From Dictyostelium discoideum (taxonomy: Eukaryota): a DNA stretch of 64,000 nt. The position numbers and the translations under genes were made by a program. The stretch covers positions 3,072,001 through 3,136,000 of the forward strand of contig CM000155.2 of NCBI GenBank assembly GCA_000004695.1. The letters are read 5' to 3'. Shown here one piece after another: positions 1,412 through 55,907 of the stretch (the stretch's first letter is position 1; each line of letters starts with the position of its first letter). Below the pieces are notes generated by a model. The model was given only the letters and a program-made list of their open reading frames with translations. It did not search any database and was not told the DNA's origin.

Positions 1412-2014
1412 TTTAAAAAAAAAAAAAACAACATACACTTGAAGCATTAAAAATTTCTAAAACTTGTCTATTTTTAATACCAGGATTCATGAAACCTGCA
1501 GAAATATGTACGAATAAACCCATACGAGCGAATCTACTTCTACCTTCTAAAAGACCACAAAGCTTTGGTGATAATTCGATAGTTTCTTCAGTAATACCTA
1601 AACACATATGACCGGGTTCTAAAATAAATCTTTCACCCTCTTTTAATACTGATAATTCTGAAAAATCTTGGTAATTAATTGATTCTGAAACTATAATGGT
1701 ATCACTATTATCTCTCTTTTTAAACACTCTAAATTCATTACTTAATGTTAAATCAATTGATGCTGCACCAATTGATTTCTCTTCATATCCTGGTGTAATT
1801 TTAATATCACTAATTTTTGTTTTTGTTTTTTTTTTTAAAAAAAATTTAATAACATGTTATTAAAAATAAAATTTATAAAATTAGAAAATTGATTTTTTTT
1901 TTTTTTTTTATTTTTTTATATTTATTTTTATTTTTAATTTTTATTTTTAATTTTAATTTTAGTTATACCCTGATGCTAATGATTTAAGAATTTCGTCTCT
2001 AGATAATACACTCA
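1222..2014 (-). CDS. dcd: dCTP deaminase (bacterial-type Dcd). Three exons on the minus strand: 2014..1968, 1809..1437, 1335..1222. Introns begin GTATAA and GTATGT and end in AG.
   Basis: The spliced protein MSVLSRDEILKSLASG/G-DIKITPGYEEKSIGAASIDLTLSNEFRVFKK...GHMCLGITEETIELSP...GRSRFARMGLFVHISAGFMNPG...EIFNASS/NRLELVPGTKICQFVFMELKGTAVYHGRFENNKL* aligns along its whole length with E. coli Dcd (MRLCDRDIE..., [39 protein letters not shown]). Intron phases are consistent. Confidence 0.8.
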
Positions 2015-2102
2015 TTATTTATATTTATTTTTAGTTTGTTTAGTTTTGTTTTTATTATAAAAAAAAAAATGAATGTATGTTTTATGTTTAATCAAAAAAG
2101 AG

Positions 2103-2135
<33 letters not shown>

Positions 2136-2913
2136 TTTTTAAACCCTTTTTTTTTTTTTAATTTTCTTTTTTTTATTTTAATTTAAATTTTTTTTTTTTT
2201 TAAATTTTTTTTTCATTTTTAATCAAAAACTATCATATGATTTCGAAGCAATGCAATTGCATATTTTCATTTTTTTTAATTTTTTTTTTTTTTTTTTTTT
2301 AATTTTTTTTTTTGGGAACTCATTGCAGAAACTTGTTTTTAAAACGAAACACAAAAAAAATAAAAATAAAAAAACAAAAATAAATAAAAAAAAAAAAAAA
2401 TATTTACGTATTTACAGATGGCACCGCCACTTTAATACCATATCTAGGAATAATAAGGACACATTCCTTCTAACAAATTGCTCAAAATACATTGGGAGGA
2501 ATACATCCACAACCACGACAACCAGTCCAACCAACACCACTACAACATAAAAAAAAAAAAAAAAAAAAATTACATTCACCAAAAAATAAAACTACGATCC
2601 ACACAAAAAGAAAATCTCAATTTTATTATAGTTGTAATGATAAAAAGATTAAGTTAATTTTAAATCTTTAAATCTTTTTTTTTAAAAAATTTTTATAAAT
2701 TTTCCAACTTTTATTTAATTTTTTTTATGAAATTAACTGTTTACAATAAATAAAATAATTTTATTTTTACGTGTTATTCTTGTATTTTTCGCAATTTTCA
2801 AAAAATTTTTATTTTTAATTTTTTTTTTTTTTTTTTAAAATCTAAAATCAAAAAAAGTTACTTATTATTATTATTATTATATTATTATTATTATTATTAT
2901 TATTATTTATTAA

Positions 2914-3657
2914 ATGGAAGATTTTTTCAAAAAAAAAGAACCAATAATAATTGAAGGATTAACAATAATTGAAAATGCAATTGATAAAGAAATGCATGAC
3001 AAACTTTGGAAAGAAGTTAATAAAGAGGAATGGTTAACAGATTTATCAAGAAGAACTCAACATTATGGATATAAATATAATTATAAATCGAGATCATTAA
3101 AAAGTGAAGATATTGCACCACCATTCCCTCAATGGGCATCAGATTTATGTTGTCATTTAATGAAAGAAGGTTTAATAAATGATTTTCCACAACAATTAAT
3201 AGTTAACGAGTATAAAGATGGCCAAGGAATAAGTGCTCATATCGATTCAAAAATATTTGATAATATTATATTCTCAATTTCATTAGGTTCAACATGTAAA
3301 ATGATTTTTAAAAAATCAATTCAACCAACAACAACAACAAAAACAACAACAACAACCTCTGAAAAGGCAGAAGTTTTAAAAGTTGAAAAACAATTAGCAC
3401 CACGTGCATTTCTATTAATAAAAGATGAAGCTAGATTTAATTGGACTCATGAAATACCAAAATTAAAAAAAGGCCAACATCGTATTAGTTTAACTTTTAG
3501 ATTCGTTTCAAAACCACCTTCACCTTTATTAAAATCAAAATTAATTTCTAATAATAAAAATAATGAGATAAAAACTGAAACTACTAAAACAACAACGACA
3601 ACGACAACAACAAAAGAAAAAATAGAAACCAATATTGTTGATGATGATGATGATTGA
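2914..3657 (+). CDS. AlkB-like 2-oxoglutarate/Fe(II)-dependent dioxygenase, single exon, 247 aa.
   Basis: ORF 2914..3657 has the AlkB-family pattern: NEYKDGQGISAHIDS (HxD iron ligands) and GQHRISLTFRFV (2OG-binding RxS). Ser/Thr/Lys-rich low-complexity inserts are present. Confidence 0.7.
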   Translation: MEDFFKKKEPIIIEGLTIIENAIDKEMHDKLWKEVNKEEWLTDLSRRTQHYGYKYNYKSRSLKSEDIAPPFPQWASDLCCHLMKEGLINDFPQQLIVNEYKDGQGISAHIDSKIFDNIIFSISLGSTCKMIFKKSIQPTTTTKTTTTTSEKAEVLKVEKQLAPRAFLLIKDEARFNWTHEIPKLKKGQHRISLTFRFVSKPPSPLLKSKLISNNKNNEIKTETTKTTTTTTTTKEKIETNIVDDDDD

Positions 3658-4224
3658 AAAAAAAAAAAAAAAAAAAAAAATGGAAATAAAATTTATACCA
3701 AAATTCTGGATTCAAACTCAATCAACTATCATTTGAGTTCACTAAAAAAAAAAAAAAAAATTGAAAAATTTTAAAATAAAAAATATTTTTAGAAATCATT
3801 TAAAATAAAAAAAGAGAAAATTGGTGGAGATTTTGATTACATCATTGAAAAAAAAAAATTTCTTGCAGAATGCCAATCGCATCAAAATTTTCCAAAAAGA
3901 TTTTTTTAATTTTTATTTTTTTTAATTTTTATTTTTTTTTTTTCTTTTTTTTTTATTTTTATTTTTTTTTTTTTTATTTTTATTTTTTTTATTTTTTTTT
4001 TTTTGAAAATTCATTCTTTTTATTTTTTTTTTTTTTGGTGTAATGACAATTTCAATAAAACAAATTTAAAAATAAATAATTTTTAATAATATTAATAATA
4101 AATATTTTGTTTAATAATATACCTAAACAAATAAACAAGCACAACTAAGCGGATAATAAAACAAAAACTTAATCTATAAAGTAATAATAATAATAATAAT
4201 AAATTTGTAATTTGAAATAATAAA

Positions 4225-9582: not shown

Positions 9583-11428
9583 TTAATTAGTGTTGAAAAA
9601 CATACCGTCCTCAATTCCATTCTCTGGTTCCGTAACACTTTTAAAATTTGGAGAATTTGTATTCAAAGTACCTTGCTGTTGAGGGTTATTAAAATTATTA
9701 TTGTGTATATTATGAGGTTGAGAGTTGGTTGATGGAGAAGACATTGGAATAGAAGAGTCAAATGATGAGAAATCTAAAAATGTTTGAATATGTTGGTTTG
9801 GAGTTTGTTGGTTTGGATTTTGTTGGTTTGGATTTTGTTGATTTGGATTTTGTTGTAGATTTGGATTTTGTTGATTTGGATTTTGTTGTTGATTTGGATT
9901 TTGTTGTTGTTGTTGTTGATTTGGATTTTGTTGTTGTTGTTGTTGTTGTTGGTTTGGATTTTGTTGTTGGTGCATTTGTAAATGAAATTGAGGGTGGCCA
10001 CTTTGTTGTGGACCACCTTGATGCATTGGATGATGCATTGGATGTTGTTGATGCATTGGATGTTGTTGCATTGGATGTTGTTGCATTGGATGTTGTTGCA
10101 TTGGATGTTGTTGTAGGTTTGGATTTTGTTGTTGTTGGTTTGGATTTTGTTGTTGGTTTGGATTTTGTTGTTGGTTTGGATTTTGTTGTTGGTTTGGATT
10201 TTGTTGTTGTTGGTTTGGATTTTGTTGTTGTTGGTTTGGATTTTGTTGTTGATTTGGATTTTGTTGTTGATTTGGATTTTGTTGTTGTTGGTTTGGAATT
10301 TGTTGTTGGTTTGGATTTTGTTGTTGATTTGGATTTTGTTGTTGGTTTGAATTTTGTTGTTGGTTCGGATTTTGTTGTTGGCTCGGATTTTGTTGTTGTT
10401 GGTTTGGAATTTGTTGTTGATTTGGAATTTGTTGTTGATTTGGATTTTGTTGTTGATTTGGATTTTGTTGTTGTTGTTGTTGATTTGGATTTTGTTGTTG
10501 TTGTTGATTTGGATTTGGATTTTGTTGTTGCTGTTGTTGATTATGCATTTGCTGTTGTATTTGTTGTTGTTGCATTTGTTGCATTTGTTGTTGTTGCATT
10601 TGTTGTTGTTGCATTTGTTGTTGTTGCATTTGTTGTTGTTGCATTTGTTGTTGATGCAATTGTTGTTGATGTAATTGTTGTTGTTGGATTATATGATGTG
10701 CTTGATTTTGAGCATGTTGTAAGTGTTGTGGGTGATGTTGATGTTGATTTGGTGGTGGTGGTGGTGGTGGTTGTTGGTTTTGATTTTGTGGCATATTGGT
10801 AGAAGCTGGTGGATGCATATTAGTTTTAATATTTTCAGCATTGTGTTGTTGTGGTTGTGGTTGTTGTGGTTGTTGTGGTTGTTGTTGCTGTTGTTGATTG
10901 ATATTACTACTATTAGAAGGAGAGGAAAGTGGTGATTGAGGCGGTAGTTGTTGTGGTGGTGTTCCATCAACTTGTGGAGATGGTATACCACCAGTAGATG
11001 ATTTGGATATTGAACCACGTTTAGAAGATGATGACCCTTTATTACTATTACTGTTATTTGCCTCTTCGACATGCTTTCTCTTTTTTGAAGAAGATGCTGA
11101 TGTTGATGAGGATGATGCTGATAATGCTGTTGTTTGAGATTTGTTTTTTTCAACTTCGAGATCATTAGAAGAAGAACTCTTTTTAGTTGATCTACTTCTT
11201 GATTTTGAACTTGAGTTTTGGTTATTATTAATATTATTAGATATTGGTGGTGTGGTTGTTGATGTTGCCAAATTACTATTACTGTTTGATGGATTTGGTG
11301 TTTGAGGTGGTGAATTAATTGGTGGTGATGCAAGGTTTGGCACACCATTTGATGAATGTAAATTATTATTATGACTATTATGATTATTAGGATTATTATT
11401 AGGATTATTATTATTATTGTTATTGTTA

Positions 11429-11478
<50 letters not shown>

Positions 11479-11788
11479 GGGATTATTATTAGGATTATTA
11501 TTATTATTATTGTTATTATTAGGATGATTATTATTATTATTACTGTTATTATTATTATTATTAATGTTTGGACTTGCTGTTGAAGAAATATTTACACCGT
11601 GAGAGTTTTGGTTAGGGTTATTATTATTATTATTGTTGTTGTTGTTGTTATTATTATTATTACTACTATTATTATTATTATTATTATTATTATTAGGATT
11701 ATTATTATTATTAGGGTTATTATTGTTATTATTATTGTTATTATTGTTGTTATTATTATTAGGATTGTTTGGATTATTGTTATTAGGA

Positions 11789-11838
<50 letters not shown>

Positions 11839-12951
11839 GTTATTATTGTTATTATTAGGATTATTATTTGGATGATTTGGATGATTATTTGGAACTAAAT
11901 GTCCTGCTTGATTCTGAAATTGTTGTACTAATCCATGTGCCATTCCAGTGTAAAATCCAGGAGGAGGTTGACCCATTCCTTGAGGTGGTGGATAAGCACT
12001 CCAATAATATTGTTGTCCATTTGCTACCATATGTTGAGGGATTCCTTGTGGCATTCCCTGTGGTCCTCTGTGAAATTGAATTTGTGCTCCACCTTGCATT
12101 TGTGGATATGGAATCCCGTTTACAACCTTTTGAAATTGACCATGTTGTTGCATTAATTGAGGGTTCATACCTTGTTGGTGCGGATGCATATGGAATTGAT
12201 GTGGATGACCTTGTTGTTGATTTGGATGACCCTGATTTTGACCTTGATTTTGACCTAGATTTTGACCTTGATTTTGACCTTGATTTTGACCTTGATTTTG
12301 ACCTTGGCCTTGACCTTGATTTTGACCTTGACCTTGACCTTGATTTTGATTTTGATTTTGATTTTGGTTTTGATTTTGATTTTGATTTTGATTTTGATTT
12401 TGACCTTGATTTTGGTTTTGGTTTTGGTTTTGGTTTTGGTTTGGGTTTGGGTTTTGGTTTGGGTTTGGGTTTGGGTTTGGGTTTGGGTTTGGGTTTGGGT
12501 TTTGATTTTGGTTTTGATTTTGATTTTGATTTTGGTTTGGATTTTGATTCTGGTTTTGGTTTTGGTTTTGGTGATTATTTACGGGTGGGGTTGGTGGTTG
12601 GATATTTGTAAAATCTTGAGAACCTTTCTTTTTGATTGGGGATGGTGGTTGAACTTTTCCCACTCTCTTCTCCTCTTCATGATGTTTTATATTTACAGTT
12701 GGTGTTGATGGTGATGAGTGAGAAATACCATTTTGTTGACCTTGTGGATTTATTTGTTGATTTTGTTGATTTTGTTGATTTTGTTGTTGCATATGCTGTT
12801 GTTGCAATTGTTGCATATGTTGATTATGAATAAATTGTTGATGCATTAATTGCTGATTCTGTTGGTTCATTTGGTTATGCATTTGTGGTGATTGGGGTGG
12901 ATGTTGATTTTGATTTTGTTGATTGTTAGGATTATTATTACTATTATTAGG

Positions 12952-12982
<31 letters not shown>

Positions 12983-14214
12983 GGATTATTAGGATTATTA
13001 TTATTAGGATTATTATTATTATTACCATTATTATTATTATTAGGATTATTGTTATTGTTATTATTATTACTATTATTGTTGGGATTATTATTATTACTAT
13101 TATTGTTGGGATTATTATTATTACTATTATTGTTGGGATTATTATTATTATTATTATTATTGTTGTTGTTGTTCATTTGTTGTTGGTGATTCATCTGTTG
13201 CTGATGATTCATGTATTGTTGATGATTCATTTGTTGTTGATTGGTCATTTGTTGTAAACTATTAAACTGATTTTGGAATTGATTATAACTATTTTGTTGA
13301 TTTGGATTTTGATTTGGATTTGGATTTTGATTTTGATTTTGATTTTGATTTTGATTTTGATTTGGATTTGGATTTGGATTTGGATTTGGATTTGGATTTG
13401 GATTTGGATTTGGATTTGGATTTTGATTTTGAGGTCCATTTGCATGTGGTGATTGAATGGATTGATTTTGTGGTGATGACATATTTTGACTTGCCATTAA
13501 TTTAGCCATAACAGCTGCTTGTGTTTGGTTGTTCATTTGTTGTTGATTCATTTGCTGTTGATGTGTCATTTGTTGTTGATTCATTTGCTGTTGATGTATC
13601 ATTTGTTGTTGTTGTTGTTGATTATTCATTTGTTGTGGATTATTCATTTGTTGTTGATTATTCATTTGTTGTGGATTGTTCATTTGTTGTTGTTGTTGGA
13701 AAGGGGGATGACCAAATGGATAAGGTTTTGATTGACTTGGACTTGGCATAGGAACATTTTGACCTTGTGGCCCATTCATTTTTTGTTGGTGGTGCTGTTG
13801 TTGTTGTTGCAATTGCATTTGCATTTGCATTTGTAATTGTTGATGTTGTTGTTGATTTTGTGGTTGTGGCTGAATTACCCCATTTGGTAATGATATACTA
13901 TTTCTTGGTGTTGATGGTTTTGAACTTGGACTACCGCTCATTGGGTCTGATCCATTATGTTGTTCGTTATTATTATTATTATTATTGTTGTTATTTGGAT
14001 TATCATTTGATGGTAATACATCTTTTTCATCAGTTTGATTTGATGATTTATCTTTTTTATCTTTTTTACCTTTATTTGATTGATTTGGAGTTGATGGTTG
14101 TTGTGTATTATGAATTTGTTGTTGAGGTGTATTTGGTTGTTGAGGTGTATGAGGTGTTTGAGGTTGGCCTTGCTGTGGAGTATGAGGTGTATGAGGTGTT
14201 TGTGGTTGTTGACC

Positions 14215-14288
<74 letters not shown>

Positions 14289-14615
14289 GCTGCTGTTGAT
14301 GAATTTGTTGCATCATTTGATGTTGAATTTGAAGATGTGGTGGTTTTTGTTGTGGTGAATTGAATTGACTATTTGGTTGTGGTCCGTGTCCTGGTGTTGC
14401 CACCAAAGGTGATGTCATTTGACCATGTGGTCCATGTGCTGGTGTTGATGTTGGATGTTGATTTGGTGTTGTAATTGGTCCTGAGTTTGGTGTTTGTGGT
14501 GCTTGTAAATTATTATTATTTTGATGTTGTTGTTGTTGTGGTAATTTATTTGCTAAAGATAATGGAGATACAGATGAAGTTGGTGAAGTTTGTGTAATTG
14601 GTGAAGCAGTATTAA

Positions 14616-14677
<62 letters not shown>

Positions 14678-14859
14678 GAATTTTGATTATTTTGATTATT
14701 TTGATTATTTTGATTATTTTGATTATTTTGATTATTTAAATTATTTAAAGCATTATTAAAATTTGCTTGTAAATGTTGATGTTGTTGTTGTAATTGTTGT
14801 TGTTGATGTTGTTGTTGTTGTAATTGCTGTTGATATTGTTGATATTGTTGTTGATGTAA

Positions 14860-14892
<33 letters not shown>

Positions 14893-15470
14893 CTGTTGTT
14901 GTTGTTGTTGTTGTTGAACCAATTGTTGTTGTTGTTGTTGTATTTGAAGTTGTAGTTGAGATTGTTGTTGTAGATTAGATTGTTGTTGTTGATGTTGTGC
15001 TTGTTGTGCTTGTTGATAGGTTTGTTGTTGTTGTAGTATCTGTTGTTGTAAATTTATGGTTTGATGTTGTTGTTGTTGTGCTTGTTGTTGCAATTGTACC
15101 GATTGTCGTTGTATTTGTATATCTAATTGTTGCTGTTGTTGTTGGTGTAAATATTTGGTGAAGTTTATATACGCCTTAACTGTCTCATTATTTGACAATG
15201 ACATTCCATTCGCTTTTGCAAAAAATACATCCCAAAACATATTCCACCATTCACATAAAAAACTTTCACCACTACCACCACCACTATTATTATTTATATT
15301 ATCACCACTACTACTGCTACCACTACCACTGCCATCAACACTACCACTACCACTACCACCTGTATCAATCATTTGTACATTTGATGGTATTTTCACTTCT
15401 GCTTTAAATGCATCCACTGTACTCTTATAATTATTCTTTTGTAAATAATCTAAAATATATGCGTTTAAAC

Positions 15471-15519
<49 letters not shown>

Positions 15520-15627
15520 ATTATTATTTTCATTATTTTCATTATTATTAGTATTTTGTAAATTATTTGTAATTAAATTATTATTATAATTATTTATTAT
15601 ATGTTTAACATGAGATGGAGGTTCCAT
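9583..15627 (-). CDS. Giant (2014 aa) LisH/LUFS-domain poly-Q/poly-N protein, single exon. Probable SSDP/Flo8/LEUNIG-like transcriptional co-regulator.
   Basis: N-terminus contains a LisH motif (SLNAYILDYLQKNNYKSTVDAFKAEVKI) followed by CEWWNMFWDVFFAKANGM (LUFS-like). The remainder is Q/N/P/H-rich low complexity, including Q46 and N40+ runs. Continuous minus-strand ORF. Confidence 0.75.
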
Positions 15628-46865: not shown

Positions 46866-49800
46866 TTAATTTTTTCTGCTAACTCTTTTTTTCATTTTAA
46901 AAAGGAAAATTCTAAAAGATAATTTTGAATTTGAAGGTAATAAGATTAAAATAATTAAAATTAAAATTATAAAGAAAACTATAGAACCAATTACAATACC
47001 AGCTATTTGAGGTTTTGATAAAGATGATGAAGACGACGATGTGCATATAGAATTATCAGAATTTGAAGAAGCTGGATTTGAATTTAATAATACAGAAAAG
47101 TCTGGATCTAACTCTATATTAATATTATAGAAAGGTATTTGAATAGCGACAAACGATAATTTTTTACTTGAGGTTGTACTATTTAATTTTTCATTCTGAT
47201 TGAAATCTGTTAAAACTTTATTACTAATTGTACGTACTACATTATCAATATTTGCTCTTTTTAAATATTTTGAAAGAAAACTAAATTCACCAACTTGAAG
47301 TTCTAAATAATTTGAATGATCATTTAAACCAAATTGTTCACTTGAACAAATGTCATCAGTTTTTGAAGTTTCAATAAAATTTTTAAATATTAATTCCAAT
47401 GTATTTAAAGATGTTGAGAATGGATAATGATCAATTGATATTGAATATTTTAAACTTGATGGATTTATAGTAAATTTATCACCTGCAAACGTAATTTGAG
47501 TTTCTTTTTCAAACCATTCAGCTATCACTGTTATATTTGATACTTGATTAGCACCTTTTTTAATTTTAGAACTATATGAAAATTTTGTACTTGAAATATT
47601 TTTAAAATCCCAAATATCAAAATAATGAATATTTTCAATTGAATTATTAAAATTAATTTCACGTATTGCAACTATTGAAATTATAGTATTAAGTTTAATA
47701 TCACCATTATTGCCAACAATTGGAATTTCATTTTTAATATCTGGTGATGTTAAATTTGTTATAGGTTGAGGTATTTTAACAATCTCTGATAAACAATCAA
47801 ATCCACTATATGGTGAGATACATTGACATCCAATATTTTCAATACATTTACCTCTATTCAATCCACCACAACTATTTAAACATACTACTTTTGGTGTTGG
47901 TGTTATTAGTGTTGGTATTGATGGTGTTGAAGTAGGTGTTGTGGTTGAAGTTGGTGTTGAGGTTGGTGTTGAAGTTGGTGTTGAATCAGATGAAGAAGTT
48001 GAAGAATCAGGTAAAACAGTGATTTCAACAATATTGGATAGAGTTTGAGTAATTTCATCTTTTATATAAACATATAATTTTTCAGAATTAAATGATTCAA
48101 CTTTATTTATTAAAATAACATTTGAACTGAAAATTAAATTATTTTGAACAAGAGAATTTGAACTATCATTAATAAAAATTTTAGGATCAGAACCAAAACT
48201 ATTACCACTTATTGTTATTAAACCACCACTACTTGAGATTGATGTAAAACTTTCAATAAATGGTGTTTTGGTTTGTATAATTGGTGATATAATACTAGTG
48301 AAACCTAAATTTTCTAAATCAAATGATGAAAAACCACCAAGATTAAAAGAAGTATCAACAATTCCAAATACTGATGCCACAATCATATTACCATTACTAT
48401 CACCACCACCAAATCCATATGGTACTAAACAAGTTGCTGTATAATTTGCTGAAAATATCAAAAGGGAAGTATCCCATTGGAAACCATTTAATTTAGTTTC
48501 ACATTCTATACTTGTTAATTCTAAATCTAATAAATCATTTATGTAATATTCTAAAAATACAACTGGTTTATGAGTGTCATATAATAAACCAAAACTATCG
48601 GTAACTTGAAATTCAAACGATAAATCCCTATTATGTGAATATGAATCAATATTTAGAGTTGATGGTTTAAAAATTGAAAGAGTTGGTTGAGTTGCATCTG
48701 GTGTAAAATCTGGAGTATTAACTTTAAAAGTTAAAAAACTCATACTAGTTGAATCTATACTATATATTGGTGATAATAAATTTACACCTGATTCTTTATT
48801 AAAATTAAAATTATCTTCAATTATTTGAGATTTGTGACCTGAATTATCAATTAAAATTATATTTTCAAATGTAAAAGTTTGTCCTTGAATGGTTGGTTTC
48901 ACAAGGAATTTAATATTATATTGACCTATAAATTTATCACCACTTATTAAATCAAGTTCAGGTGTAAAATAAAATTCTAAAGGAATTGGATCCTTATCAC
49001 CAATAATTCTAAAATATGCAGATTTCAAACCATTAATTCTATCTTCAATTGTAACTGTCCAACCTACCATTAAATCTTTGGTTCCATTACATGTAAATTC
49101 ATTACCATTGACAGGTTCAATCGATTGGAAATAAGATATATTTTTAATAATTGGTGGCATTTCATCACAATCTGTTGAGGTTACACTTAAATTTGCAGCA
49201 TTACCAAATAATGAATAAAAGTAATCCATTGTATAACTAACGCTATCTACTTTAATAATATATGGCAAACTACCAGAACATTTACGAGGTGGAATTACAA
49301 ATTGAATTTTAAAAACATTTTCATTTTTGTCTTTTAAATATTGACCGACTTCAAGATCCATTGGATTAATTAATGAATCTCCATAAATTGGATCTAATAA
49401 ATAAAATGAGATTGGTATATCGTATGCTGAATCAATATAATCGAAATATAAAGTTTGTAAAAATCCATAATCAACATTTACATTTTGTGCTTCAAATTCA
49501 AATTTACTAACTGATAAAACTTGACTTCCACCATTAATACTATTATTAAAAGCATTTATATATGGGATTTCTTTTAAAGGATTTAATGAATAATATGTAT
49601 CATATATTTTGAATTGACCACCTGTAGTCATAATTAAAATTGGTGTTTTTTCAAAAGTAACAATGATAACTTTTTCATAATAACCATCACCTATTGTTCC
49701 ATTGACTAAATCCTTTTGAGTTATAATGTTACCACAATATTTCAACCATGATAAAACACCAGCACCTGCTTTTGAAATGATCCTAACTTGAAGAACTGCT

Positions 49801-51504
49801 CTTTTACCATCACCACCTCTTGGATAATAAATATTCATACTTTCAATAGATGGCAATTCATAAGTTTGTGGTGTGTCAAAAACTTCAAGAGATGTAACAA
49901 CTTTATTTAAATTTGAACTAAAGCTATAATATAATGAACCAATCACTTGAGTCTTTAATACACTCATTTGGTATTGAAATATTTGCATTGTACCTGAAAC
50001 AACACCATAAGGGTATTTAAATTGTCTTAGATTAATACCAACATTTTGTGTACTCTCAAAACCAGTTGAAAATAACATTGATCTTGATATATTACCGTTT
50101 ATTTCCATATTTATAAAATTTGTACTTGTATTTGTTGTACCATCAATAAAAGAAAAAGGTATCGCTATTTTAAATAATTGTAAAATATAAATAATTGTTA
50201 ATACTTTGATATTAAAAAAAAAAAAAAAAACAAAAAAAAAACTTACCATAGTAATCGATTGAAGCAGTTTCAAACGAAATATTATCATAAACTAAAGAAT
50301 GTACTTGATAACTTAATTTTGGTCTAATAAAATCTGACGGTAAAGAAGATGATAATAAAAACTGAGCCCTTGTTTCATTCCCACCTACCATTTTAAACCA
50401 TTGATTATTAAAATCTATAGGTTGATCAATCATTCCATATACAGCTTTTGAATATAAAAATAAATTCGATATTGATTTATCAATTGTATCACATGATGTA
50501 ATTAAACTTGTATCCCAATATGTACTTGATATATAACTACCACCTGCTCTATAATTATTACTTTGAGAACATACATCATTATCATAATCTTTTTTTTTTT
50601 TTTTTTTTATTAGTTTTTTTTTTTTTTTTCATATAAATTTAAAAAATATATTTATTACCTACCTATTAAAGGATTAAATAAATTGAATTCAATATTACTT
50701 AAAGAACCATATGAAATATTAAATAATAAATATGTTGGACTTACTCGAGGTGAGTTTGAAGGATTGAAATCTAATGAAAATCTTGCTAAATAGGTTGTTG
50801 AACTATCAATTAAAAATCCGTCTAAAAACGAGTATGTATATGGAAAAGGTGAATTTGTTGGTTTTAAACTTAACTGTTTTGTAACATTATAAATTTTTAA
50901 ATAAAAATAAATAGTTGATGATGGTGGAGTTGTTGTAATTAAATTTTCTAATACTTGAAAATTTAATGGTGATGTTGGTGGTTCTACACAATTATAGACG
51001 AATAAAGGAATTGCATAATTATTTGATCCATCATATATTGAGGAGAGGCTATATTGGCCGACTGTACAATTTGCATAAATTTCAAAACGACCAAATGTAT
51101 CTATTGATTGTATGAGTTCTGTTTTAAAATAATCAGTTGATAAACCTGAAATTAAAACTGTTGAAATTTGACTACCAAATGATCCAATAAATGTAAATCT
51201 TGGGTAACAATAACCACCTTTTTTATTTTAGTTTTTTTTTTTTTTTTATTTTGGGAAATAATATTAGTAAAAGAAATATAAATAAACGTTGCTATGTTTA
51301 ATTTTGACTTTTTCCCACATAAAAATTTTCAGATAAAAATCTGAATTTCGGCATCGTTTATTTTTTTTTTTTATTTTTAGTTTTCATACTTTCAGCATAA
51401 AAATCACTATTTTTTTTTAATTGAAAGAAATCAACAGAAGACAGTGTAATTACTAATTCTATAAATAATAAATTTAAAAAAATAAATAAAGTCAAAAATT
51501 TCAT
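46866..51504 (-). CDS. Giant secreted/type-I membrane glycoprotein, paralog B. The CDS length is identical at 4311 nt. Four exons on the minus strand: 51504..51390, 51217..50663, 50588..50247, 50164..46866.
   Basis: MKFLTLFIFLNLLFIELVITLSSVD... signal peptide. Exon/intron architecture and phases are identical to paralog A. IPT-like FTSISSSGGLITISGNSFG; EGF-like VVCLNSCGGLNRGKCIENIGCQCISPYSGFDCLS; a TPTS-repeat linker; TM segment IAGIVIGSIVFFIILILIILILL. Roughly 50% identity to A overall, but with roughly 95% identical internal blocks. Confidence 0.6.
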
Positions 51505-52038: not shown

Positions 52039-54293
52039 TTAAAGGAGAGCTTCAAAATTGAAATTTGCATTATCACTAGTATTACAAATTGATTTGAATG
52101 ATACGACTAAATTACCACCATCGAATTTCCAAACCCAATAAGAACTTTGTTTTTCAACAAATTGGAAGACGATTTTACAATTTTGAGTTGCTTCAACGAA
52201 ACCTTCTTTGACCATATCATCATCTTTACATCTTTTAACGATATTTTGACTGATGTAACGAATGATTTCAGCAAAGACATCACCAACACGTGGTTTATTA
52301 TTTTCTTCTAATTTTGGATAAACTTGTTCGATTGAAGATTCATCATAAGTCCAATCATTACCCAAGACTTCTTTAATCTTTTCGAAAGATTCATTGATTT
52401 TCTCTTGATTCTCTCTCAAATTGATTCTAGAGGCTAAAGTGAGTACACCTGGTGATGGTAAAATTTTAATGAAATCAAAGTTTGCATTATCACTAACATT
52501 GCAAATTGATTTGAAGGTGATTACTAAATCATTGTTTTCAAAACTCCAATTCCAATAACCGTTTGCTTTGGCATTGTGACGGAAAACAATCTTTGCATTT
52601 GAAGTTGCTTCGAGGAAACTTTCTAAAACCATATCCTCTTTACAACGTTTAACGATATTATCAGCGACATATTTAATAATCTCTTGGAATAAGTCACCAA
52701 TTCTTTCTTTATTTCTTTCTTCAAGTGCTGGATAAACAGTTTCCAATGATTGCTCATCATAGGACCAATCTACTTTAGTGACCTCTTTAATTCTTTCAAA
52801 AGCGGTATCGAATTTCTCTTGGTTCTCTTTCAAATTGATTTTAGCAGCTAATGAGAAAACACCTGGTACTGGAAGGACTTTAATGAAATCGAAATTGGCA
52901 TTATCAGAGATATTACAAATTGATTTAAAGGTGATGATTAAATTACCACCTTCAAAGGTCCAATTCCAATAACCACTTGCTTTGGCATTATGACGGAAAA
53001 CAATCTTTGCATTTGAAGTTGCTTCAACGAATGCTTCTAAAATTGTATCATTTTTACATTTCTTTTCAATGTTATCAGCAACATATTTGAAAATATCAGA
53101 GAATAAATCACCAATTCTCTCTTTATTTCTTTCTTCAAGTGCTGGATAAATTTGCTCCAATGATTCTTGCTCATATGACCAATCCATGTGGGTGGCTGCT
53201 TTAATTCTTTCGAAAGCGGTATCGAATTTCTCTTGGTTCTCTTTCATATTCAAACGAGCAGCTAATGAGAAAACACCTGGAACTGGGAGAACTTTAATGA
53301 AATCGTAGTTGGCATTATCAGAGATATTACTAATGGATTTGAAAGTAATGATGAGATCACCATTAGCGAATGACCAATTCCAATAGCCTGTGGTTTGTTT
53401 TGGATTATGTCTGAAACTAATTCTACCATTGGCAGTTACATCATTGAAACTTTCTAAAGTCATTTCATCTTTACAACGTTTTTCAATGTTTTGAGCAACG
53501 TATTCTAAAATTTGAGCAAATGTAGTACCAAATTGTTCACGTTGACTTTCATGTTCAAAAGCAGTTGGATAAACAGTTTCCATTGATGCTTCATCAAATG
53601 ACCAATCTCTACTGGTAACTACTTTAATTCTTTCGAATGCAAGTTCAAATCTTTCTTGATTCTTTTTCATATTAAGACGAGTTGGTAAACTATAAGCACC
53701 TTCACTTGGAATCACTTTATATAATTCGAAATTACCAGCTTCAGTAATATTATTACAACCTTTCTTGAATAAAAGATTTAATTGACCACCATTAAATGCA
53801 TACTTCCAATAGGATGAATTCTTGGCATCTTCATTAACAATTAATACAATCTTTTTAGCAGTATTTGCATTAATGATTGATTCTTTAGTTAATTCATCTT
53901 TTGATGCATTTACAATACATTTACTAATATTTGGACATAAATTTTTATAAAATACTTCACCCTTTTTTTAAAAAAAAAAAGAATTGATTAGATAAAAAAT
54001 GAAAATTAAAAAGAAAAAAAAAAAAATTACTTACTAATTGTTTTTTAACATGTTCATCAACTTTATCGAAAATGGCATCCCAATCAAATTCAATAATCCA
54101 TTCTTCACCATTTAAAGCATTTTTGATTTCTTCATGTGCTTTATTTAAGTGTTCTTCATTATCTCTTAATGATTTTCTGAAAAATAAAAAATAAAAAAAT
54201 GAAAAGAGTAAATAATTTGAACTTGATATTTTTTTATTTTTTTTTATTACTGTCTTTTTTTTTTATTTACCTAGCAACAAGGTTTAAAGGCAT
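52039..54293 (-). CDS. Protein of about 692 aa composed of five tandem roughly 140-aa internal repeats. Uncharacterised; no signal peptide seen. Three exons on the minus strand: 54293..54271, 54176..54035, 53952..52039.
   Basis: The repeat unit is roughly ...LNMKENQEKFDTAFERIK..T..DWSYDE.SLE.VYPALEERNKERIGDLF..I.KYVADNI.K.CK.D..LE.F.EATSNAKIVFRHNAKA.GYWNW.FE.GNL.ITFKSICN.SDNANFDFIKVLP.PGV, repeated 5 times. The first copy is diverged (EEWIIEFDWDAIFDKVDEHVKKQL...SSYWKYAFNGGQLNLLFKKGCNNITEAGNFELYKVIP). Exon 1 is MPLNLVAR|GTAAAT. The exon-3 acceptor (gggtgaAG) is weaker than usual. Confidence 0.55.
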
Positions 54294-54895: not shown

Positions 54896-55618
54896 TTATT
54901 TTAAAACTAAATCATTTGAAATGTTTGTAAATTTCGAAGTAATATCCCAAAGTTTTTTAGAAATTTCAATACTATTGAATTGTCTTGGAGTTTCAGTTAA
55001 TACACCAATGTTAAAGTAAGAACCTTTAATACCATTAAGTGATGGATCAGTACCAAGTGCAACTTTTGCACATTCTTTAGAAGCAACTTGAATTGGAGTG
55101 AAAATAAAATTTGGCATCAATGAAAAAGCAACTTTTAAAATACCAGTAAAATCACGTTGTAAACTAGTTTGAACTTTACCAGGATTAATTGAATTTACTA
55201 CTATTTTAGAACCTTTTTCAATTAATTTTCTTTGTAATTCCTTTGTGAATAATAGATTACAACATTTCGAAAGTGAATAATCTTTTAATTGATTATAGTT
55301 TGCCTCTGATTCAACATTTATTTTATCATTTAAAATCAATGATAAATCGGCATCTTTAAATCTATCAGATGTTAAAACTAAAATTCTTGGATTTTCACTT
55401 TTTTCCAAATTTTTTAATAATAAATTTGTTAATAAAAATGGACCAAAATGATTAGTAGCAATTTGAAATGAATAACCATCTTGAGTTATTGAAAATGGTG
55501 GACACATAACACCTGCATTATTAATTAATAAATCTAATGGTAAATTTAATTTATTAAATTCATTTACAAATGATTTTACTGACTATTTTTTTTTTTTTTT
55601 AAAAAAAATAATTTATTA

Positions 55619-55681
<63 letters not shown>

Positions 55682-55907
55682 GATTAAATTAAATTACATT
55701 TTGTTTACTAAGATCTAAATCTAAAATGATAATATTACTATTTCCAGTGTGTGATGAAATTTCTTTAGCAGCAACTTCACCTTTTTGTTTATTTCTACAT
55801 CCAATAACAATTGTGCCAATTTCTCTTGCAATTATCTTACAAGTTTCTTTTCCTATTCCATCACTTCCACCAGTTATAATTGCAACTTTATTATTTAATT
55901 TATTCAT
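54896..55907 (-). CDS. Short-chain dehydrogenase/reductase (retinol-dehydrogenase/WWOX-like SDR). Two exons on the minus strand: 55907..55698, 55582..54896 (about 298 aa).
   Basis: Cofactor motif KVAIITGGSDGIGKETC. Catalytic YSLSKCCNLLFTKEL (YxxxK). LINNAGVM motif. Intron GTAATT...aatAG, phase 0. Confidence 0.75.

Follow-up and report, generated by a model that had tools for sequence, protein, structure and literature searches.

Within a 64,000-nucleotide (nt) stretch of Dictyostelium discoideum DNA (GenBank assembly GCA_000004695.1, contig CM000155.2, positions 3,072,001 to 3,136,000 of the forward strand; hereafter the window, in whose own coordinates positions are given), a minus-strand gene running from 54293 to 52039 encodes a protein that consists, from residue 1 to residue 695, of five tandem copies of the same domain. 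Here, I argue, and hold with very little doubt, that this is a genuine translated and very abundant cytosolic protein of the growth phase, that its repeats are copies of an unclassified alpha/beta domain which defines a protist-wide family, and that the array is old. The novelty is narrow: it lies in the domain family, which is unclassified because it passed no membership test for a known family; the gene is in the databases already, as that of a hypothetical protein, and no new mechanism or kind of system is claimed.

The gene has three exons, and the spliced coding sequence of 2088 nt translates into 695 amino acids (aa). An exact-sequence look-up returned XP_629041.1 / EAL60674.1 / Q54BI8, the 'hypothetical protein' DDB_G0293724 of D. 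discoideum AX4. A preliminary description, made from the sequence alone, had regarded the acceptor of exon 3 as weak; the splice model is nonetheless identical to that of RefSeq, and the domain profile runs unbroken over the junction between exons 2 and 3 (positions 9-57, then from 57). The parts of the gene are:

54271..54293, minus strand: exon 1 (23 nt, ATG at 54293); spliced model identical to XP_629041.1.
54177..54270, minus strand: intron 1 (GT..AG, A/T-rich, 94 nt); read from the sequence and needed for the model that matches RefSeq.
54035..54176, minus strand: exon 2 (142 nt); its open reading frame (ORF) matches domain-profile positions 9-57.
53962..54034, minus strand: intron 2 (GTAAGT..AG, 73 nt); read from the sequence, the profile resuming at position 57 in exon 3.
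52039..53961, minus strand: exon 3, including the TAA stop at 52039-52041; from the sequence reading and the spliced model.

The encoded protein, which starts with MPLNLVARKSLRDNEE and ends with NFNFEALL, has a mass of 80.4 kDa and is acidic (pI 5.2). Signal peptide and transmembrane segment are absent, as had been noted from the start: the N-terminus is hydrophilic and Kyte-Doolittle hydropathy, averaged over 19 aa, peaks at 1.39. With no hydrophobic segment and a pI of 5.2, the product reads as soluble.

The expected five tandem modules of about 140 aa are borne out, the units measuring about 138 aa and every one of them matching the family profile. When the protein is compared with itself shifted by 138 residues, 37% of the positions are identical, the background being about 6%, and a period of 414 nt extends over 2.3 copies at the DNA level (Tandem Repeats Finder). 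Cut at the recurring linker P-x-[EP]-G, the units are:

53710..54293, minus strand: repeat 1 (R1), aa 1-139; contains both introns, is of N-cap type and keeps L-x-L-x-x-R-K-S-L-R-D-N-E.
53287..53709, minus strand: repeat 2 (R2), aa 140-280; positional orthologue of R2 in Heterostelium and D. purpureum.
52873..53286, minus strand: repeat 3 (R3), aa 281-418; 78% aa and 80.9% nt identity to R4.
52459..52872, minus strand: repeat 4 (R4), aa 419-556; the unit used for the AlphaFold2 model.
52042..52458, minus strand: repeat 5 (R5), aa 557-695; of C-cap type, the protein terminus coinciding with the domain end.

A profile search found no further copies of the domain elsewhere in the window. The four C-terminal repeats had been described as 70-85% identical to one another, which proves true of R3 and R4 only (78%); the other pairs within R2-R5 lie at 46-61% (R2/R3 58%, R2/R4 60%, R4/R5 61%, R3/R5 56%, R2/R5 46%). 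In DNA, R3 and R4 are 80.9% identical and the remaining pairs 62-70%. None of the units can be a chance match, for each scores 108-121 bits (expectation value, E, 1e-34 to 1e-38) against a profile built from distant relatives only, namely 88 domains that are each less than 38% identical to any repeat of the window. The N-terminal copy, held to be diverged, is so relative to R2-R5 (26-35% aa identity); measured against the family profile it is not (108.8 bits, versus 108-121 for the others), and the family motif R-K-x-L-R-D is better kept in R1 than in R2-R4, where it is partly lost. R1 is a distinct subtype and not a decayed copy. The family signature comprises L8, a basic residue at position 11 (R/K), G59, E84, I95, Y106, G114, L116 and N125; L8, G59, E84, I95, Y106, L116 and N125 are present in all five units, and G114 is replaced only in R4 (by N).

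The same five-repeat architecture occurs in the paralogue DDB_G0290465 (Q54G31) and in orthologues from D. citrinum, D. dimigraforme, D. firmibasis, D. purpureum and Heterostelium album. The paralogue and the orthologues of D. citrinum and D. firmibasis, together with DICPUDRAFT_54671 of D. purpureum and PPL_05858 of Heterostelium, are of about 695 aa with five units, share 56-89% identity with the window protein and correspond to it repeat by repeat; all of them being 'hypothetical proteins', they provide no functional anchor. The Heterostelium album model PPL_05858 (P0008, 770 aa) is peculiar in that its last repeat stops about 14 residues early and is followed by a 78-aa tail containing Cys and His, absent from all other orthologues; it probably reflects a missed splice site or stop in the gene model.

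Does the array stem from recent internal duplication, or is it subject to ongoing concerted evolution, possibly with a copy number that varies among strains? R3 and R4 would speak for such a young array: they are the most similar pair (78% aa, 81% nt) and are mutual nearest relatives within D. purpureum (72%), Heterostelium (63%) and the paralogue (83%), their positional correspondence being limited to the D. discoideum species complex. R1, R2 and R5, on the other hand, are each nearest to the same-position repeat of the paralogue and of other species, from D. firmibasis and D. citrinum out to D. purpureum and Heterostelium (Acytosteliales). It follows from this same-position pairing that the five-unit architecture is older than both the dictyostelid radiation and the split of the paralogues; moreover, distant five-unit relatives of about 690 aa exist at 31-35% identity. 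Any two repeats share at most 35 nt of uninterrupted identity in their DNA, which rules out recent gene conversion. The array is thus ancient, and the recent duplication proposed in the preliminary description finds no support; concerted evolution, proposed there as well, fits the central pair and fails for R1, R2 and R5, homogenisation or later re-duplication being confined to R3/R4.

Proteins with fewer units bear on how such arrays may have grown. That of Acytostelium subglobosum (P0038, 279 aa) has two units, one of R1 type and one of R5 type, and that of Echinostelium bisporum (P0032, 560 aa) has four, the first and the last of which best match R1 and R5, respectively. Nearest to R5 of the window protein stand its counterparts in other species, along with the last repeats of the Acytostelium and Echinostelium proteins. 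This pattern suggests that the family grew by duplication of middle units between specialised end units.

A further point in favour of a young, variable array would be the four-repeat protein models of 554 aa which GenBank holds for wild strains. Orthologue models of this type exist for five wild assemblies of D. discoideum or cf. discoideum (e.g. KAM9954040.1), and one assembly has the same type for the paralogue (KAM9948186.1). At a wild-strain locus (L007, positions 1501-3768; GCA_054859385.1) the gene spans 2268 nt and can be aligned over its full length to that of the window (97.2%); repeat 2 is intact there and the reading frame continuous through it. The stretch concerned is, in the window:

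53277..53699, minus strand: 423 nt, nearly exactly repeat 2, starting with GT and ending with AG; treated as an intron in other assemblies.

Its removal reproduces the junction IPSEG|VFSL of two of the four-repeat models (P0005 and P0006). Since wild-strain DNA keeps an intact, in-frame repeat 2, the four-repeat models reflect a false GT..AG intron and not a deletion allele, and a copy-number polymorphism of five versus four repeats is ruled out. The 554-aa models would be wrong or, at best, represent an unproven exitron isoform that lacks repeat 2. The young-array view is, on these grounds, largely refuted, and deserves next to no credence.

Beyond the Dictyostelia, the domain turns out to be widespread. 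A search with the repeat profile (which, like the alignment used for AlphaFold2, was built without the spliced R1 row) against 1.84 billion representative proteins retrieved 440 protein clusters at E <= 1e-3, 251 at <= 1e-10 and 70 at <= 1e-30; a word-indexed homologue search with a diverse alignment returned two proteins. Where a member carries a name, it belongs to the Dictyostelia (Acytostelium, Tieghemostelium), to the myxogastrid Echinostelium bisporum or to the heterolobosean Percolomonas, and no such record is animal, fungal or plant. Most members are nameless sequences on short environmental contigs (JGI, ENA, Logan); one sampled contig has a poly(A) tail and hence derives from a eukaryotic mRNA. 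Units were counted in 176 sequences, 150 among the matches listed plus relatives fetched earlier: 66 have two units, 54 have one (some of these being fragments), 23 three, 18 five and 11 four.

About 160 of the 176 consist of the domain alone. An N-terminal PH domain is found in three relatives (P0053 from Percolomonas, P0070 and P0111) and a PX domain in one (P0162); these carry one to five copies of the same module (E 1e-19 to 1e-56) behind a domain of phosphoinositide-binding type that the Dictyostelium protein lacks, and they too are uncharacterised. Others have N-terminal regions of about 300 aa to which no domain is assigned; in one group of relatives (P0103, P0137, P0147) the N-terminal extension is about 320 aa long and includes a Pro/Gln-rich linker.

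Over 95 domains that are mutually less than 40% identical, conservation is highest at G114 (95%), N125 (93%), G33 (87%), G59 (84%), Y106 (83%), L8 (79%), D79 (78%) and I95 (78%), and the N-terminal helix carries the family motif L-P-L-x-x-R-K-N-I-R-D. No conserved His is found among the 95, and the only frequent Cys, at position 77, is conserved in 52% of them and is Ser in R1. Made up mainly of glycines and core residues, this pattern does not look like a recognisable catalytic signature.

AlphaFold2 gives R4 a mean predicted local distance difference test (pLDDT) of 92.7 and a predicted template modelling score (pTM) of 0.86 from a 48-sequence repeat alignment. Helices are placed at residues 8-16, 18-32, 40-49, 52-55, 58-76 and 80-89, with a two-residue bridge after helix 2, and are followed by strands at 94-99, 107-112 and 115-120 and a helix at 126-131. 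The module is therewith confidently predicted as a compact alpha/beta unit: a helix bundle, an antiparallel sheet of three to four strands and, at the C-terminus, a short helix. The full-length model (pLDDT 92.5, pTM 0.62) repeats an identical secondary-structure pattern five times.

That the domain would be an unrecognised one was stated at the outset and has stood up. Of 61 diverse members scanned, no two match the same Pfam-A family, and neither phmmer nor a profile search found a relative among PDB chains; Pfam scans of the protein, of the 61 diverse domains and of the orthologues gave only chance matches inflated by the repeats and differing between orthologues. Foldseek with the predicted module found no match. 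The module is hence without a named family and, to judge from its predicted structure, has no clearly matching solved fold.

Two database labels deserve comment in this respect. The Glypican family (PF01153) scores 30.7 bits on the whole protein, above its gathering score of 26.4. This is the sum of partial matches of about 15 bits (15.6 per repeat) which cover profile positions 86-146 of 555, a single repeat having an E of 0.007. The match is absent from the paralogue, D. purpureum and Heterostelium, which match other unrelated families instead. Moreover, glypicans are secreted and glycosylphosphatidylinositol-anchored, whereas the window protein has neither a signal peptide nor a hydrophobic C-terminus. 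Membership is therefore rejected as a false positive: partial, summed over repeats and missing from the paralogue and the distant orthologues. Several orthologues already carry PF01153 as a precomputed annotation, from which it could propagate. The paralogue, in turn, has been labelled 'ser/thr kinase related' (PMC11507795, Table 2); a kinase relationship is ruled out, no Pfam kinase family being found in the window protein or in the paralogue (P0025).

As for structure, the best neighbour of the predicted module is the C-lobe of HECT ubiquitin ligases (UBR5, 3pt3; HUWE1, 6fyh), where the superposition covers about 80 residues at 2.5-2.7 A, and many C-lobe structures recur consistently among the matches. 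One may therefore ask whether it is a divergent HECT C-lobe, or else a zincin-like catalytic domain, acting in ubiquitin transfer or binding or in proteolysis. Against this stand not only the empty Foldseek search but also the profiles, as the HECT profile PF00632 gives no match at E <= 1 on the protein or at E <= 0.1 on the 61 diverse members, and all peptidase models fail on the same sequences. An invariant Cys is absent, the best being the 52% of position 77, and the zinc-binding motif of zincins, HExxH (or HxxEH), was not found in the protein. Finally, HECT ligases have an N-lobe and an E2-binding region before the C-lobe, for which the window protein, being filled by its five repeats, has no room; nor does it have any other E3 element. 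A function like that of a HECT C-lobe or of a zincin is very improbable.

Published proteomes show that the protein is made, and in large amounts. In the label-free quantification (LFQ) of a life-cycle proteome (PMC12821622 supplement), DDB_G0293724 reaches 1.43/1.56e9 in vegetative cells, ranking beside acetyl-CoA carboxylase and in the company of coronin A (1.96e9), CAP (1.84e9), GAPDH (1.29e9) and catalase A, which is in the same range (PMC12821622). It then declines through aggregation (6.8/7.8e8), mound (2.2/1.9e8) and culmination (0.8/1.1e8) to 4.1/8.5e6 in the fruiting body, a drop of roughly 200-350-fold from the vegetative stage, and the paralogue shows the same trend (2.2-3.2e8 to about 2e7) (PMC12821622). 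DDB_G0293724 is also listed in the proteome of the Mycobacterium marinum vacuole and flagged there for earlier phagosome and macropinosome proteomes; of these lists, those of the vacuole and the phagosome also contain the paralogue (bioRxiv 10.1101/592717, Table S1). Such co-purification is suggestive, not specific. The paralogue is in addition an O-fucose candidate, enriched 5.8-fold in an anti-FOT pulldown from vegetative cells (PMC11507795, Table 2); its listing as a candidate substrate of the nucleocytoplasmic O-fucosyltransferase at least agrees with a nucleocytoplasmic location. The identifier DDB_G0293724 was not found in the main texts of the literature searched, in which the paralogue appears once, in the O-fucose table; the supplements of PMC6830349 and PMC2443395 gave no match.

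What such a protein might do can be approached only tentatively. What is put forward here is that the protein serves the feeding and endocytic apparatus as a scaffold or adaptor, multivalent and non-enzymatic; this proposal falls well short of conviction. The module would be a binding module, as the absence of conserved residues of catalytic type would imply; its five copies would confer multivalency, this being the reason for the repeats; the protein might act on endocytic membranes from their cytosolic side, or at the cell cortex; and it would be produced on a large scale during growth and removed once feeding ends. The proposal derives from the lack of catalytic-type conservation, the variable tandem copy number, the occasional PH or PX fusion, the endocytic co-purification and the loss of the protein when feeding stops.

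Several observations weigh against it. The organelle lists that hold the protein also hold TCP-1 subunits, Hsc70 and 14-3-3 (bioRxiv 10.1101/592717, Table S1), and its co-purification could be the carry-over of an abundant cytosolic protein. Few relatives have a PH or PX fusion (4 of the 176 sequences), and these may represent one or two lineages only; an acidic protein is atypical of an electrostatic membrane binder; and the inter-domain geometry is modelled with only moderate confidence (pTM 0.62). Furthermore, the conserved polar residues R11, D79, K83, E84, Y106 and N125 could form an active or ligand site.

These points lead to the main rival, namely an abundant soluble protein of the growth phase, for instance one that binds or buffers a metabolite or is chaperone-like, which is unrelated to endocytic membranes and figures in the organelle lists as a contaminant. 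Its abundance, comparable to that of glycolytic enzymes and ribosomal proteins, its acidity and solubility, the common cytosolic proteins found in the same lists and the predominance of domain-only relatives devoid of a targeting domain would all agree with this. Less easily accommodated are the relatives with PH and PX fusions, the presence of the protein in three independent endocytic-compartment data sets and of the paralogue in two, and the long-kept five-unit architecture, which suggests multivalent binding to something extended. It is a possible reading, and a doubtful one.

A different use of multivalency would be that of a cortical or actin cross-linker, whose five equivalent modules would gather filaments into bundles or anchor them at the cortex while the cell feeds and moves. 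The tandem architecture, an abundance near that of coronin and CAP, the occurrence in phagosome and macropinosome preparations rich in actin-binding proteins and the extensions with a Pro/Gln-rich linker of P0103, P0137 and P0147 could be cited in its support. The module, however, bears no likeness to known actin-binding domains in Pfam or PDB, and the extension of P0103 yields just an insignificant FGF/beta-trefoil hint (E 0.28), so that cross-linking of this sort seems quite unlikely. Returning to the scaffold proposal, its boldest form would have a domain new at the level of the fold and, with it, a hitherto overlooked, very abundant part of the phagocytic and macropinocytic machinery in amoeboid protists, a new class of multivalent effector of endocytic membranes or of the phosphoinositide pathway, of an age that would make it common to Amoebozoa and Heterolobosea; I regard this as unlikely.

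Uncharacterised domains are common, which limits the surprise. Still, the protein is among the more abundant ones of growing Dictyostelium, a major model of phagocytosis and macropinocytosis, yet has neither a family nor a convincing fold match, and hundreds of environmental transcripts of protist origin encode its domain. A new DUF-type domain entry could be created for the family, and two errors in the databases can be put right: the annotation as Glypican, and the 554-aa models, in which repeat 2 is taken for an intron. Should the endocytic link be true, the protein and its paralogue would be tractable targets for knockout and tagging in a haploid model organism.

The window as a whole is strongly A+T-rich (GC 15-33%). 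Upstream of the gene, at 54896-55907 on the minus strand, lies a two-exon short-chain dehydrogenase/reductase gene with the cofactor motif TGGSDGIG, the wild-strain orthologue of which has Pfam adh_short; downstream, a large minus-strand gene occupies 46866-50288, its wild-strain orthologue (1427 aa) having DUF7035, DUF7034, DUF7949 and ComC_SSD (ComC-like). In a eukaryote, these neighbours are no functional clue. Farther away, a single ORF of 2014 aa at 9583-15627 on the minus strand consists of almost nothing but Gln, Asn and Pro runs and has an N-terminal LisH-like motif (LNAYILDYLQKNNYKSTVDAFKAEV); this ORF accounts for the strand asymmetry seen at 10-16 kb, where the GC skew rises to +0.63 and the AT skew falls to -0.46.

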